A stretch of 64,000 nt of DNA from Ignavibacteriaceae bacterium (GTDB lineage Bacteria > Bacteroidota > Ignavibacteria > Ignavibacteriales > Ignavibacteriaceae): contig JBGSOQ010000062.1 of the NCBI GenBank assembly GCA_041739035.1, positions 44,775 through 108,774 on the forward strand, in the 5' to 3' direction. Below are positions 44,765-50,364 of the stretch, piece after piece. The notes below the pieces were generated by a model. The model saw only the letters and a program-made list of their open reading frames with translations. It ran no database searches and was not told the origin of the DNA. Positions within the stretch are counted from its first letter, which is position 1; each line of letters opens with the position of its first letter. Position numbers and translations under genes: made by a program.

Positions 44765-44790
44765 TTTTTATTCGATATTTTTAATCGCTT

Positions 44791-44814
44791 GTCATTCTCA
44801 CGTATGTGGGAATC
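44791..44814. repeat. Short REP-like hairpin (GTCATTCTCAC-GTAT-GTGGGAATC), probable terminator of mscS
   Basis: Stem ATTCTCAC/GTGGGAAT paired at 7 of 8 positions, followed by TATTTTT. Starts 27 nt after the mscS stop. Same GTCATTC...GGAATC flavour as the other intergenic palindromes. Confidence 0.45.
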
Positions 44815-44842
44815 TATTTTTAGACTGATAACAGGATTTAAT

Positions 44843-46408
44843 ATGAGCTTAACAGATAAATTTATTTCCGATCTAACTGAAGGATATACTTTTAAAGGTG
44901 ATTCTTTAATTCTCGGCACTGCAATTTATAATAATGAACCGCAGCAAAATCTTCATATCAAAATTCCACTTAGCACTATAAACAGACACGGTTTAATTGC
45001 AGGAGCTACAGGTACGGGCAAAACAAAAACAGTTCAAATATTTGCAGAAGCATTATCCGAAAAAAGTATTCCTGTTTTGTTGATGGATATTAAAGGAGAT
45101 TTAAGCGGCATTGCTGAAGAAGGAACTTTAAATCCTAAAATAGAAGAAAGACATTCTAAGATTGGTATCAAATATCAACCAAAAAGTTTTCCTGTAGAGT
45201 TTCTTACTTTATCTGAAGAAAAAGGAACTCGACTGCGTGCAACCGTTTCAGAGTTTGGTCCGGTGTTAGTTTCAAAAATTCTGGAATTGAATGACACACA
45301 ATCGGGCTTGCTGGCAATCCTCTTTAAATATTGTGATGATAACAATCTTGCACTTCTCGATTTAAAGGACTTGAAAAAAGTATTGCAATTTGCCACCACT
45401 GAAGGAAAGCAAGAGATTGCAAAAGATTATGGTTCAATTTCTCCGACATCAATCGGAACAATTTTAAGAAAAGTAGTTGAACTTGAACAGCAAGGTGCTG
45501 AAACATTTTTTGGTGAGAAATCATTTGAAGTTGAGGATCTTTTAAGGGTTGATGAAAATGGGAATGGAGTAATATCAATTTTAAGACTAATCGATATTCA
45601 GGATAGACCAAAATTATTTTCTACATTTATGCTTTCGATGCTGGCAGAAATTTACTCAAGCTTTCCTGAGCTTGGTGATAAAGCTGAACCAAAATTAGTT
45701 ATCGTAATAGATGAAGCTCATCTTATATTTAAAGAAGCAAGCAAAGCATTGTTGGATCAGATAGAAACAATAATAAAACTTATAAGATCAAAAGGTGTGG
45801 GTATTTATTTCTGCACACAAAATCCAACTGATGTTCCTCAAGCTGTTTTAAGTCAGCTTGGATTAAAAATACAACATGCACTGCGAGCATTTACTGCACA
45901 AGATAGAAAAATGATTAAACTAACTTCAGAAAATTATCCTATCTCTGAATATTATAAGACTGATGAATTACTTACATCTCTCGGAATCGGCGAAGCTGCA
46001 ATTAGTGCATTAAATGAAAAAGGAGTTCCTACTCCCCTTGCAGCAACATTGCTGTGTGCACCAAGATCACGAATGGATATTTTAACAAATGATGAATTGA
46101 CTTCTAAAATCAATGCTTCTAAAATTCTTGCTAAATATAATCAAGCTATCGATCGTGAAAGCGCTTATGAAATTCTTAATAAGAAATTAGATGCGGCTCG
46201 TGAATTTGATTTACAAATTCCTGATGAACAAAACAGAACTTATGATCGGCAGCCACGAACTAACACAAAAACAAGTACAAGAAAAGAAAAAAGCACTGTT
46301 GATAAAGTTGTGAATAGCCCGCTTTCAAAACAGATAGGTAGAACTTTGGTTAGAGAAATTACACGTGGAATTTTTGGTGTGCTTGGCATAGGTGGAAGAA
46401 AAAGATAA
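44843..46408 (+). CDS. DUF853 / HerA-like P-loop ATPase (YjgR family)
   Basis: Walker A GLIAGATGTGKTKT. Walker B LVIVIDEAHLIF. Basic C-terminal tail. Start moved to ATG 44843 because the track N-terminus overlaps the REP hairpin. Confidence 0.85.
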   Translation: MSLTDKFISDLTEGYTFKGDSLILGTAIYNNEPQQNLHIKIPLSTINRHGLIAGATGTGKTKTVQIFAEALSEKSIPVLLMDIKGDLSGIAEEGTLNPKIEERHSKIGIKYQPKSFPVEFLTLSEEKGTRLRATVSEFGPVLVSKILELNDTQSGLLAILFKYCDDNNLALLDLKDLKKVLQFATTEGKQEIAKDYGSISPTSIGTILRKVVELEQQGAETFFGEKSFEVEDLLRVDENGNGVISILRLIDIQDRPKLFSTFMLSMLAEIYSSFPELGDKAEPKLVIVIDEAHLIFKEASKALLDQIETIIKLIRSKGVGIYFCTQNPTDVPQAVLSQLGLKIQHALRAFTAQDRKMIKLTSENYPISEYYKTDELLTSLGIGEAAISALNEKGVPTPLAATLLCAPRSRMDILTNDELTSKINASKILAKYNQAIDRESAYEILNKKLDAAREFDLQIPDEQNRTYDRQPRTNTKTSTRKEKSTVDKVVNSPLSKQIGRTLVREITRGIFGVLGIGGRKR

Positions 46409-46410
46409 TT

Positions 46411-48045
46411 ATGAAAAAAGTTTACTTAACAGTATTTTATTTATTTTTATCAGCAGTTCAATACTCTCAAACAATTTCCGTTTCAGGAAATATTAGAAAT
46501 GTTACAACTAACTCCCCGATCGAAGGCGCAAAAGTACAAATCAAAAACATATCCAATGGAATGATTGATTCTGTATTCTCCGATTTAATAGGAAATTGGC
46601 AGTATGATATAGCAACATCTGTTGAAGATGATATTAATTATCTACCAACTAGCTTAGAAGTGATGCAAAATTTTCCTAACCCGTTTAATCCATCTACTAA
46701 AATTGGATTTTTAATTCCCATCGATGAAAATGTTTCTATTTCTGTTCACAATATTCTTGGTGAGCTGGTCGATGTTAAAAGTTCATTTCTTACTAAAGGT
46801 AATTATGTTGTTGATTGGTGCAGTAAAGGAAGTGCAGGAGTATATTTTTACACCATTACCTATGGAAATCAATCCATAACAAAAAAAATGATTCAGCTTG
46901 ATGGCGGTAATGGCATTGGTCTTGGAGAAATTAGATCAGGGATATCAAGTACAGCTAGTAAGAATAATACAATACCATTATATAATATTGAAATTGTTAT
47001 TAATAAATTTTCATATGCGGCTGATACTACTTTAGCAGATATTGCCGGCGGAGAAAACTTTTCAACTTTTCTTCAAACTGTTCACTCAAAATACACTTTG
47101 ATTGATTTACACAACGATGTTCTTGAAGTTATGGTAGGTGATCCAAGTTACCATCTTACAGATTTTCATACTTACAATCACACCGATATCCCGAGATTGC
47201 AGCAAGGCGGAGTTGATATTCAGTTCTTTTCAATTTGGGTAAGTCCTACTTCTTATACTAATTATTTTGATCAAGCACTTGTAATGCGTGATTTATTTTA
47301 TTCAGAGCTTGCCGCAAACACTTTAACGATTGAGCAAGCAACAACAATAGATCAGTCTCTGCAAATAAACGAGCAAAATAAAATTGCAGCAGTTATTGGC
47401 GTTGAAGGTGGACATCATATTGAGGAAAGTATTGATAAACTTGTGCAGTTGTATAATGCTGGAATGAGATATTTAACAATCACCTGGAATAACAGTGTAA
47501 GCTGGGCAATCTCCGCAGCCGATAGCCGATCTACAACTCAAGGATTGAATATTTTTGGGCGACAGATTATTAGAACATTGGATTCTCTTGGCGTGATCAT
47601 TGATGTTTCGCATACTGGGATAAAAACAATTCAGGATATTTTACAGGTAACTAATAATCCAATAGTAGCTACTCACTCAGGTGCAAGAGCAATAAGAAAT
47701 CACACAAGAAATTTATATGATGATCAAATCCAGGCAATCGCGAATACTGGGGGCGTAATTGGAATCGTATTTTATCCACCATTTCTGGTAAATCCTACTC
47801 CCGCTTATATTAGTGATGTAGTCGCACATATCGATCATATAGTAAACTTAGTTGGGACAGATTTTGTTGCTATAGGTTCAGATTTTGACGGAATTGGAAC
47901 GAATGTAGTAGTAGGGTTAGAAGATGTTTCTAAATACCCTGATTTAACTTTAGCATTACTTGAGCATGGATATACCGAATTAGAAGTTGCAAAGTTTTTA
48001 GGTGGAAATTTTAAGAGAGTTTTTGAACAAGTTTGTGGTAACTAA
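46411..48045 (+). CDS. Membrane dipeptidase (peptidase M19) fused behind an N-terminal CarboxypepD_reg-like domain and an internal T9SS-CTD-like domain
   Basis: 544 aa. Signal peptide. ISVSGNIRNVTTNSPIEGAKVQIKN. Internal MQNFPNPFNPSTKIGF...GVYFYTITYGNQSITKKMIQL (aa ~83-163). M19 motifs LIDLHNDVLE, GVEGGHHI, RYLTITWNNS, IIDVSHTG, VATHSGARAI, AIGSDFDGI. Confidence 0.85.
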   Translation: MKKVYLTVFYLFLSAVQYSQTISVSGNIRNVTTNSPIEGAKVQIKNISNGMIDSVFSDLIGNWQYDIATSVEDDINYLPTSLEVMQNFPNPFNPSTKIGFLIPIDENVSISVHNILGELVDVKSSFLTKGNYVVDWCSKGSAGVYFYTITYGNQSITKKMIQLDGGNGIGLGEIRSGISSTASKNNTIPLYNIEIVINKFSYAADTTLADIAGGENFSTFLQTVHSKYTLIDLHNDVLEVMVGDPSYHLTDFHTYNHTDIPRLQQGGVDIQFFSIWVSPTSYTNYFDQALVMRDLFYSELAANTLTIEQATTIDQSLQINEQNKIAAVIGVEGGHHIEESIDKLVQLYNAGMRYLTITWNNSVSWAISAADSRSTTQGLNIFGRQIIRTLDSLGVIIDVSHTGIKTIQDILQVTNNPIVATHSGARAIRNHTRNLYDDQIQAIANTGGVIGIVFYPPFLVNPTPAYISDVVAHIDHIVNLVGTDFVAIGSDFDGIGTNVVVGLEDVSKYPDLTLALLEHGYTELEVAKFLGGNFKRVFEQVCGN

Positions 48046-48047
48046 AA

Positions 48048-49148
48048 TTATTTAACCAGCATCATCTTTTTATTTTCTCTAAAAATATTCTTTCCCTTTG
48101 CTGATTGAACATTTAGTGAATAAATATAAACACCTGATGGTAATTCATCAGCAAAAAATAATTCGTGGTAAATTCCCTCACTTCGTTCTTCTTCAACTAA
48201 AGTAGCAATTTCACTTCCTAGTAAATCATAAATTTTTAGTTGCACATAACTTCTTTGCGGTATTTCAAACCTTATAGATGTGGAAGGGTTGAACGGATTA
48301 GGATAATTTTGTGAAAGACTAAAATTATTTACCTCAACTTCATTCTCAGCAATACCGGTTAGTGGATCAGCATTCACAACCTGCCCAGCATAAACAGTAA
48401 CAACTCTTGTGTAACCCATTGATGGTGCTGAAACAGTGTAAGTTCCGGGCTTAACATCACCAATGGCATAATTTTCATTATAAAAATCATCTGAGCCAAT
48501 TTTGGTATCTGCAAATAAATAGGTTAGGGAGTAACCATAAGTTGTGTAAGGTGGTCTTGGTTTTGGATCGGGAGTAATGTTAACTCTCGTTTCATCGGGT
48601 GCATTAGGCACTCTGCCATAAATTGCACCCATTCCCGTTATGCTGCACCAGAGTTCAGCATTTCTTTTATTACGTAAACCGCTGCTTTGTGATCCCTTTC
48701 GGATTTCAAAATGTAAATGGGCACCTGTTGAGTAGCCAGTATTTCCTGAAAGCGCAATTGGCTGGCCTTTAATTACTGCTTGATTAACTGCAACAAAGGG
48801 TCGAGTTAAATGTCCATAAAGAAAATAGTAGAATGAGTTGGTCCAATAACTTTTAATGAAGATATAATTACCGGCACCGTTTGGTTCATATCCTCCAAAA
48901 GCACCTGTATCGGTTGGGTTATATCCAACAAAAGAAACGATGCCATCTGTAGCTGAGTAAACTGTATCCCATCGAACAAGAATATCTATTCCGTTATGTG
49001 CATTACCAGGATTAGAAATACTAGGTTCACCATAAAGATAACTACCATTGGTTTGGATATTATTGGGCACAGGTCTGTCGATTCGAAAATTCTGAGCGTG
49101 ATTAAAGAGAAACGGTGAGAGAAACAAAATTGTAAATAATATTCTCAT
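48048..49148 (-). CDS. M23 (LytM-type) metallopeptidase with T9SS sorting domain
   Basis: 366 aa. HNGIDI and GAHLHFEI zinc motifs. Tail NYPNPFNPSTSIRF...GVYIYSLNVQSAKGKNIFRENKKMMLVK. Confidence 0.88.
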   Translation of the reverse strand: MRILFTILFLSPFLFNHAQNFRIDRPVPNNIQTNGSYLYGEPSISNPGNAHNGIDILVRWDTVYSATDGIVSFVGYNPTDTGAFGGYEPNGAGNYIFIKSYWTNSFYYFLYGHLTRPFVAVNQAVIKGQPIALSGNTGYSTGAHLHFEIRKGSQSSGLRNKRNAELWCSITGMGAIYGRVPNAPDETRVNITPDPKPRPPYTTYGYSLTYLFADTKIGSDDFYNENYAIGDVKPGTYTVSAPSMGYTRVVTVYAGQVVNADPLTGIAENEVEVNNFSLSQNYPNPFNPSTSIRFEIPQRSYVQLKIYDLLGSEIATLVEEERSEGIYHELFFADELPSGVYIYSLNVQSAKGKNIFRENKKMMLVK

Positions 49149-49279: not shown

Positions 49280-50287
49280 CTAAAAATTAATGCCAACAGA
49301 AAAATAATGTATCTCAGTCAATCGACCGAAATCCTGATAAGCATAGTCGAGTTTTACTTTTATTAGATCTACAATTCTGTAATACAAACCAAAACCGAGT
49401 GTCAATCCTTTTTCAGAATCTTTCTCGAACAATGAATTGTAACCAGCTCTAACATGAATTATTTCATTCCAGGCATATTCTAATCCTGTGTTAAGATATT
49501 CCGTATGATCATTTGGATGAATTGCATCTAGTCCTAAAGTTAAACGAGAAGTTCCTTCTTTAATTACGTCGGCAGATATTCCAAATCTAAATAAAAGCGG
49601 AAGATCAAATTTGTCTAATTCAATATTAGAGTTAATCAAATTACTGCCGCCTGCTCCTGAAGGAAATACTACAGTAGCATCTCTACCGGAAAGCTGCATC
49701 TTTGTGCCGAAGTTTGAAATACTTGCAGCAAGTCTTAATTCGTTTAATACCGGAATTTTATACAGCGTTCCGATATCAATCGCAAGTCCTGTAGCATTCA
49801 TATTCCACAGATTTTCACTTATATACTTTAAATTAAACCCAATCGTAAAATTTTCTGTAAGAAATCTGGAATAGTTTAATCCAAGTACTAAAGTATTGTA
49901 GTCAAAAAATTCACCGGTGCCTTCCGGATTTTCAATTGTTCTAACTGCCATTTCATCCATAGAAAGAACTGAAACAAATGCACCAACGGTTCCTAAACCG
50001 GATAAGTTAGTTGCATAGGCGGCAAAGTCATGTCTAACATCAGCGTACAAAGCTGTATGATTAAAAAATGCTTCGTTAGAGACAATATTAGCCGTTCCAC
50101 TTGGATTCCAGTATATAGCAGTGATGTCGTCTGAAATAGCAGTAAATGCACCACCCATTCCTATAGCTCTTGGACCAACATTAAATTTTAGAACCTGAGT
50201 TGCTGTTGTTCCTGTTTTTGTAGTCTGAGCAAACAAAACTGTGGAGCAAATACAAGCAGCTAAAATCATTAATAAATATTTATTCAT
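49280..50287 (-). CDS. PorV/PorQ-family outer-membrane beta-barrel protein (T9SS-associated)
   Basis: About 335 aa with a signal peptide. Family-typical N-terminal motif GPRAIGMGGAFTAISDDITAIYWNPSG. C-terminal FSVGINF. Start at ATG 50287 with an AGGAG RBS. Confidence 0.75.
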   Translation of the reverse strand: MNKYLLMILAACICSTVLFAQTTKTGTTATQVLKFNVGPRAIGMGGAFTAISDDITAIYWNPSGTANIVSNEAFFNHTALYADVRHDFAAYATNLSGLGTVGAFVSVLSMDEMAVRTIENPEGTGEFFDYNTLVLGLNYSRFLTENFTIGFNLKYISENLWNMNATGLAIDIGTLYKIPVLNELRLAASISNFGTKMQLSGRDATVVFPSGAGGSNLINSNIELDKFDLPLLFRFGISADVIKEGTSRLTLGLDAIHPNDHTEYLNTGLEYAWNEIIHVRAGYNSLFEKDSEKGLTLGFGLYYRIVDLIKVKLDYAYQDFGRLTEIHYFSVGINF

Positions 50288-50364
50288 AAAAATTCTCCTG
50301 ATCAAACTCTATATTATTCATATTTCCTAAAGTCACCCATAGGGGGATTTAGGGGGCTCTTTTT

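Follow-up and report, generated by a model that had tools for sequence, protein, structure and literature searches.

A stretch of 64,000 nucleotides from an Ignavibacteriaceae bacterium (GenBank assembly GCA_041739035.1, contig JBGSOQ010000062.1, positions 44,775 to 108,774 of the forward strand; hereafter the window, in whose coordinates the gene is described) carries at 46411-48045, on the plus strand, a gene for a predicted exported dipeptidase of peptidase family M19. Near its N-terminus, this protein contains a type IX secretion system (T9SS) sorting domain that appears to be nested inside another domain. To our knowledge, the T9SS signal is defined by its C-terminal position, a rule that every characterised substrate obeys. 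The frame, which closes with the stop codon 48043-48045, comes from the list of open reading frames (ORFs) and is backed by stop-free full-length orthologues. Along the 544-residue chain, the ORF list and profile scans place a predicted signal peptide, a composite N-terminal module and the M19 dipeptidase, in that order. Comparison with the orthologues shows a conserved, putatively exported dipeptidase with a nested, apparently selected and portable module built around the C-terminal-domain (CTD) type of sorting signal.

The sorting domain occupies residues 86-163 (46666-46899; QNFPNPFNPST ... GVYFY ... KKMIQL). That a full copy of it lies inside the chain had been proposed in a first-pass annotation of the window, and scoring with hidden Markov models (HMMs) upholds the proposal: the segment is, by profile score, a bona fide type A T9SS sorting domain. 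Residues 88-161 match Por_Secre_tail (PF18962) with 32.9 bits against a cut-off of 27 in the Pfam scan and TIGR04183 with 41.6 bits against a cut-off of 23 in the NCBIfam scan. The sole PDB match of a profile of the module is a T9SS CTD, 8glj_D, which stems from the F. johnsoniae translocon work and aligns over the whole domain (E 0.006). The domain starts at residue 86 of 544 and ends 381 residues before the stop, and so does not hold the extreme C-terminal position. Across the assembly (4.59 Mb, 482 contigs), jackhmmer applied to the ORFs of all six frames collected 206 sorting domains, 195 of which end no more than five residues from a stop; only three lie deep inside a protein, namely those of the window gene, of its second copy and of one other protein. 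Because nearly all copies sit beside a stop and only three well inside, the internal position is a genuine rarity.

When aligned with 191 terminal CTDs of the same genome, the internal CTD keeps every hallmark (QNYPNPFNP.T.I, LG..V, G.Y...W, SGVYFY and KKM.LL). Ten consecutive residues, QN.PNPFNPST, are invariant or nearly so among 12 orthologues, and the beta7 lysine, K159, and G117 of the LG loop between beta3 and beta4 are invariant in both alignments, the diverged P0122 and P0124 included. Mean pairwise identity among the orthologues is 63% for the M19 domain, 56% for the CTD, 40% and 32% for the two parts of the flanking sandwich and 16-25% for the linkers; at the level of sequence, the internal CTD comes close to the catalytic domain in conservation and far exceeds its host sandwich. 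The approach to the domain is canonical as well. The linker in front of it (residues 69-85, TSVEDDINYLPTSLEV, 46615-46665) matches the linker consensus of terminal CTDs, and the pre-CTD stretch TSVEDDINYLPTSLEVMQN fits the consensus of the regions upstream of 183 terminal CTDs, in which positions -17 to -13 form an acidic patch, -9 is Pro, and -6 and -4 are hydrophobic; P79 is invariant. Behind the domain, the sequence falls into three parts: a hinge of the form DGGxGxGL, a variable stretch and three predicted strands. The conserved hinge (DGGNGIGLG, residues 164-172, 46900-46926) has D164, G165 and G170 invariant in the 12-orthologue alignment, with Asp164-Gly165 standing in place of the canonical terminal Lys/Arg.

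The segments on either side of this cassette belong together. Preceding it are four strands (residues 21-68, 46471-46614), in which CarboxypepD_reg (PF13620) is matched at residues 23-64 with 19.5 bits against a cut-off of 32.3, and over profile positions 1-41 of 82 only; Pfam finds no contiguous CarboxypepD_reg match above the cut-off in the window protein. The CarboxypepD_reg-like module that the first-pass annotation had placed here is present, as half a domain. The same annotation had read what follows the CTD as a linker of about 65 residues, which describes the hinge and the variable, probably disordered stretch (residues 173-190, 46927-46980; 16% mean pairwise identity) and misses that the remainder holds the other half of the sandwich: the three strands at residues 191-223 (46981-47079) resemble in pattern the latter half of a CarboxypepD_reg domain and take up the missing template positions, 43-70. 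With the insert removed, two spliced orthologues pass the Pfam cut-off, at 41.3 bits (positions 1-74) and 33.3 bits (positions 1-82), with 24.9 bits for the N-terminal half alone in that rescan. A first jackhmmer seed for the CarboxypepD_reg family retrieved only itself. A profile-profile test with hhalign sets the spliced columns of the alignment of 12 orthologues against a profile built from 41 contiguous domains of the same genome. Here, the spliced flanks score 54.2 over template positions 1-69 of 78 and the N-terminal half alone 41.6 over positions 1-39, and the C-terminal half alone goes to the complementary positions 43-70 (P 2e-4). As controls, a reversed C-terminal half scores 43.3 and 30 column-shuffled ones 41.7-44.1. 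An AlphaFold model of the N-terminal 235 residues, built from a 25-sequence alignment, has a predicted local distance difference test score (pLDDT) of 84-92 at residues 21-68, 86-91 at residues 191-221 and 82-89 in the sorting domain, and below 50 in both connecting stretches (residues 70-79 and 178-187).

These comparisons indicate that residues 21-68 and 191-223 are probably two halves of one CarboxypepD_reg-like sandwich. Since the flanks match complementary halves of a single CarboxypepD_reg-type profile, a simple end-to-end fusion fits poorly, and we conclude that the cassette of linker and CTD is most probably nested in the loop between strands 4 and 5 of the sandwich. Some results speak against the split domain. 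The spliced window sequence itself gains nothing in the Pfam rescan (23.6 bits), and a home-made HMM run with shuffled and random controls reaches significance only for the protein L012 (z 11.5), with four others marginal. The evidence for the nesting is profile comparison and pLDDT, from which the packing of the halves is inferred.

The catalytic part, a Peptidase M19 TIM barrel of the renal-dipeptidase type (residues 224-540, 47080-48030), is complete, as first annotated: PF01244 scores 333.9 bits against a cut-off of 26 over profile positions 2-319 of 319, and the domain aligns at full length with the human DPEP1 structures 9h0b and 1itq (E 1e-55). H234, D236, E332, H401, H422 and D491 align with the DPEP1 motifs, in which we take the HxD pair, a bridging Glu, two His and an Asp to be the ligands of a binuclear zinc site. 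All metal ligands are present, and because these six residues are invariant in the 12 orthologues, an active dipeptidase is expected. Three long M19 matches, P0128-P0130, were considered as possible fusions of M19 with a canonical C-terminal CTD and turned out to be tandem M19 duplications. Most of the closest M19 relatives that lack the module carry a lipobox or a signal peptide at their start, which argues that this branch of the family is exported and often tethered at the N-terminus. In the window protein, residues 1-20 (MKKVYLTVFYLFLSAVQYSQ, 46411-46470) form a predicted Sec-type signal peptide devoid of a lipobox Cys, judged by inspection and with an inferred cleavage site; the predicted structure models have a helix at residues 2-14. 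Its last residue, Gln20 (codon 46468-46470), is nearly invariant (at least 90% conserved in the 12-orthologue alignment), and across the orthologues a near-invariant Gln marks the site predicted for signal peptidase (...[FY][AS]Q). This pattern recalls the Bacteroidetes 'Q-rule', which, according to PMC5837995, does not hold across the whole Fibrobacteres-Chlorobi-Bacteroidetes group.

The layout is not peculiar to this assembly (G000). A large protein collection contains more than 100 protein clusters of 540-550 residues with the same Pfam pair, 68-86% identical, whose source names are metagenome-assembled genomes (MAGs) of Ignavibacteria, Ignavibacteriales or Ignavibacterium and whose annotation is merely 'membrane dipeptidase'; about five further full-length clusters appear at 50% clustering. 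Twelve of 41 related genomes, the window's assembly included, have a full-length orthologue, with identities from 62% down to 44% (the latter in another family of the order) and frames of 558-575 residues free of stops. The junction KKM[IV][QL]LDG and the whole layout are kept in their alignment, so that a comparison of orthologues, which might have found two separate genes, finds the same single-frame architecture. A scan of genome contigs with this alignment was overwhelmed by the QN[YF]PNPFN pattern and gave only one full-length orthologue. A second copy, about 60% identical, is encoded in the same assembly, divided between two contig ends with an overlap of about 40 residues (C202:1678-2403, plus strand, and C51:17952-19067, minus strand). 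This second copy is closer to the orthologues of the same genus than the window copy is.

These data bear on the plainest explanation of an internal sorting domain, which is an accident: either a sequencing or assembly error or a recent loss of a stop codon that joined a small T9SS cargo gene to a dipeptidase gene. A run of eight A residues (46881-46888) does lie within the KKM codons of the last CTD strand, where an error of one base in either direction would shift the frame, and small proteins consisting of a signal peptide, a half-domain and a CTD do exist (L014, described below). We nevertheless regard an accident as extremely improbable. The frame across the run is backed by the conserved protein sequence of the orthologues. 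One A lost or gained leads to an immediate stop after ITKK or ITKKNDSA, neither of which is a canonical tail end, and the M19 part has neither its own start nor its own signal peptide. The same architecture, junction and length, with an open frame of 540-570 residues, recur in the more than 100 clusters, assembled independently, and in 11 other genomes whose DNA differs and which show no stops; a second copy exists in the same assembly, and the region after the CTD completes the domain begun before it. A recent stop-codon loss, which had been offered on first reading as one origin of the gene, is refuted by the independent clusters and the stop-free genomes, as is an assembly error; the other suggestion made then, reuse of the sorting domain as an internal module, stands in the sense that the domain is kept as an internal one. 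Even as an ancient event, a fusion origin is not favoured. On the provenance of the contig, the window's M19, HerA-like and M23 genes are 61-74% identical to those of other genera (G024, G012 and G008), against 57-69% to those of four genomes of the same genus, and the contamination estimate of the assembly is 8.8%; this 132-kb contig (C444) may derive from a second, co-binned Ignavibacteriaceae organism.

The module is also found without the dipeptidase. L013, a hypothetical protein of 555 residues from a genome of the same genus, matches query residues 3-227, that is, the whole module. In the members of its family (P0277-P0287, 545-935 residues), NYPNPF lies near residue 90 and KKMIQLD(G) near 160, followed by an unrelated conserved C-terminal domain and no terminal CTD; the KKMIQLDG junction is common to the M19 proteins and to this family. 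Two further proteins have the same layout. One, a 577-residue non-M19 protein of the window's own assembly (C311:3821-5551, minus strand), runs from the N-terminal half through an internal CTD and ...LGG to the C-terminal half, and continues with another CarboxypepD_reg domain, this one contiguous (36.5 bits), and a C-terminal region that is uncharacterised, again with no terminal CTD. The other, the L016/L017 protein of genome G004, is beta-propeller-like, has 572 residues and likewise lacks a terminal CTD, so that the feature is missing from all of these proteins, the M19 ones included. By similarity, the internal CTDs of the M19, L013 and C311 proteins tend to rank near each other and that of L016 does not; the latter may be independent in origin. 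As far as these matches go, the module is a portable unit that heads at least one unrelated family. A search for non-M19 carriers with residues 21-223 gave M19 proteins only among its best 120 matches.

Relatives of the arrangement in which the CTD is terminal were also considered. L014 (L102:3943-4599, minus strand, in G031:C19) is a small monocistronic protein made up of a signal peptide, a four-strand N-terminal half, the usual linker and a canonical terminal CTD (48.6 bits). No partner gene for the C-terminal half lies beside it at the locus examined, and a two-gene version of the clasp considered below was dropped on that account. The idea that half a domain plus a CTD is a common C-terminal unit of canonical cargo was likewise dropped, as the examples show either a full sandwich (L098) or unrelated domains before the CTD.

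Nine other ORFs of the window end in a terminal sorting domain (...KKM.L.K-stop), the number given in the first-pass annotation. The HerA-like ATPase gene at 44789-46408 on the plus strand (DUF853, PF05872, 591 bits) ends 2 nt before the start codon of the dipeptidase; convergent with the dipeptidase is the gene of an M23 peptidase with a terminal CTD (48048-49148, minus strand), and directly upstream of the latter lies the gene of a 341-residue PorV/PorQ-like beta-barrel (49280-50305, minus strand; PorV 21.2 bits, UPF0164, DUF5723). As conserved operon partners, the HerA-like ATPase, the M23 peptidase and the barrel were rejected, being adjacent only in the nearest relatives. The assembly encodes T9SS machinery, namely SprA (985 bits) and the adjoining PorU (986 bits) and PorV (108 bits; C147:59943-60650), as well as 17 PorV/PorQ-like barrels besides PorV and 195 canonical cargo proteins. 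Several of the 18 barrels are encoded next to CTD cargo genes (those on C339, C127, C21 and C292 among them), which suggests dedicated carrier-cargo pairs. In the P0124 genome, a 1040-residue protein (L104:1-3525) has a different tail, ...VVPNPYYMRADWD... ending in GKFAIIR before the stop, and a 334-residue DUF5723 barrel is encoded immediately after it; this is another cargo-plus-barrel pair, with a tail that is not of type A.

Set beside known systems, the window protein shares with canonical type A cargo (RgpB of Porphyromonas gingivalis, the nine window genes and 8glj_D) the Sec signal peptide, the CTD family, its hallmarks, the beta7 Lys and the acidic, Pro-containing linker. It differs in features known here from sequence: the CTD starts at residue 86 of 544 and is nested, and the terminal Lys/Arg has given way to Asp-Gly and a Gly-rich hinge. 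A canonical cargo protein from the Ignavibacteria, L098 in genome G002, is assembled from the same three parts, with the same linker joining sandwich and CTD; there, however, the sandwich is complete before the CTD and the CTD is terminal, whereas here the last three strands follow the CTD and are succeeded by the passenger domain. The M19 membrane dipeptidases (human DPEP1, 1itq and 9h0b; the bacterial Sco3058 type, 3id7) share the full-length catalytic domain and the zinc ligands, and the family is typically membrane-tethered or exported. The mammalian tether is a C-terminal glycosylphosphatidylinositol anchor. In bacterial relatives, the tether is an N-terminal lipobox or signal peptide, whereas the N-terminal extension of the window protein is the nested CTD module. 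A model for a CTD that serves as a docking handle is offered by PorU, PorZ and PorA, in which an uncleaved CTD is kept in the mature protein and docks on PorV or PorQ (PMC11285876), although these CTDs are C-terminal and their bearers are components of the machinery rather than enzymes. No barrel could be matched to the window protein as its cognate partner.

What the nested CTD does can be read in more than one way. We prefer a sorting or docking role linked to the T9SS, a reading to which we give a little less than an even chance. After Sec export, T9SS components (a PorV-type carrier, the SprA translocon or both) would recognise the nested domain as a folded CTD, which, hung on two flexible linkers, would act as a sorting or docking handle away from the C-terminus. 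Such a handle would bring the dipeptidase to the outer membrane or cell surface, or hold it there, leaving the C-terminus of the enzyme free, and the enzyme would there split dipeptides released by the many secreted peptidases of the organism. This role is preferred because Lys159 and the LG loop are invariant, the module is portable and its carriers have no terminal CTD. The closest module-free M19 relatives, being mostly lipoproteins or signal-peptide proteins, further mark the enzyme family as one anchored at its N-terminus, where the module sits. By cryogenic electron microscopy, SprA and PorV offer a pocket, plastic and mostly hydrophobic, in which the CTD sits as a folded domain, with a near-invariant Lys touching PorV, and the cargo exits CTD-first (PMC10994853); a CTD hanging on two flexible linkers would be compatible with this folded-domain picture. 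His tags that extend the C-terminus of PorU, PorZ and PPAD do not stop secretion, and residues of the last strand (the beta7 Lys) and the loop motif matter experimentally (PMC11285876). On these grounds, the initial verdict that the domain cannot act as a canonical export signal, and that the enzyme is therefore probably periplasmic, was overstated in its 'cannot'; residence in the periplasm is possible.

Indeed, a periplasmic enzyme is a serious alternative, to which we assign a substantial probability that nonetheless stays well short of even. It supposes that the protein is exported by Sec and that its CTD, with no T9SS contact, is kept as an Ig-like spacer, an oligomerisation surface or a site for some other partner. 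Much of what weighs against a T9SS-linked role fits this reused fold. The final Lys/Arg, found in 94% of terminal CTDs (n=191), is here the invariant Asp164. An internal position that was freely functional should be commoner than three in 206, and our full-text literature searches turned up no account of T9SS sorting domains in an internal or N-terminal position. In P0122 and P0124, the most diverged lineages, the hallmark motifs have decayed (NPYLY, GILLL); because a neighbouring cargo protein in the P0124 genome keeps a canonical terminal CTD, the internal copy there does not track the signal of its lineage. P0063, from an NCBI MAG (520 residues, otherwise 78% identical), has a clean in-frame deletion of 24 residues that removes the last two CTD strands (KGSAGVYFY...KKMIQ); seen once, it represents either a natural loss or a collapse in the assembly. 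The conserved CTD motifs specify the fold (PMC10994853), and for that reason their retention alone is no proof of recognition. Neither a PorV-like barrel nor any other T9SS gene is a consistent neighbour at the orthologous loci, related M19 enzymes are periplasmic or lipoproteins, and a dipeptidase would work well in the periplasm. Against a merely reused fold stand the conservation of the CTD, near that of the catalytic domain and far above that of the host sandwich, and the beta7 Lys and loop motif, which even diverged members keep. The pre-CTD linker still follows the canonical pattern, and the composite spreads as a unit to unrelated passengers, all of them devoid of a terminal CTD. A plain spacer, moreover, gives no reason for the nesting or for its own strong preservation.

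Returning to a T9SS-linked role, its boldest form holds that the nested module is a working T9SS signal away from the C-terminus: the whole 544-residue dipeptidase would cross, or dock on, the outer membrane from its N-terminal end, with Asp-Gly mimicking the C-terminal carboxylate or serving as a point of cleavage, and with the split sandwich possibly acting as a clasp if the chain is cut. We consider this rather unlikely as a whole. A special case, in which the chain is actually processed, is more doubtful still and strikes us as improbable. Here, the PorU sortase would cut in the pre-CTD linker, or a cut would fall at Asp164-Gly165, which, speculatively, would recreate a terminal CTD and leave the fragments joined by the two halves of the split sandwich; equally speculatively, the N-terminal half would become a surface anchor that holds the dipeptidase non-covalently. 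Such a clasp would be suited by a sandwich split into complementary parts around the CTD, by an upstream linker of canonical pattern, by the invariant Asp-Gly and Gly-rich hinge downstream, which recur in the second family, and by the stand-alone L014 protein in a relative. On the other side, cleavage is a matter of inference, L014 has no adjoining gene for a C-terminal half, and we know of no demonstration that the T9SS transports non-covalent complexes.

However the role of the domain is settled, the gene family is a natural and conserved case of a T9SS sorting domain placed near the N-terminus, nested, and found on at least two unrelated protein families. It offers a direct test case for whether a terminal position of the domain is required by the translocon and PorV. 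If the module does not work as a signal, it shows in a clear-cut way a secretion signal made into a structural domain, as well as the insertion of one domain into another, and it would correct the routine T9SS-related annotation that these enzymes receive from PF18962 matches. If it does work, the prediction of T9SS cargo changes, as searches limited to C-termini miss such proteins. The C-terminal position would then be no requirement of T9SS recognition, and an N-terminal route would exist for cargo whose C-terminus must stay free.

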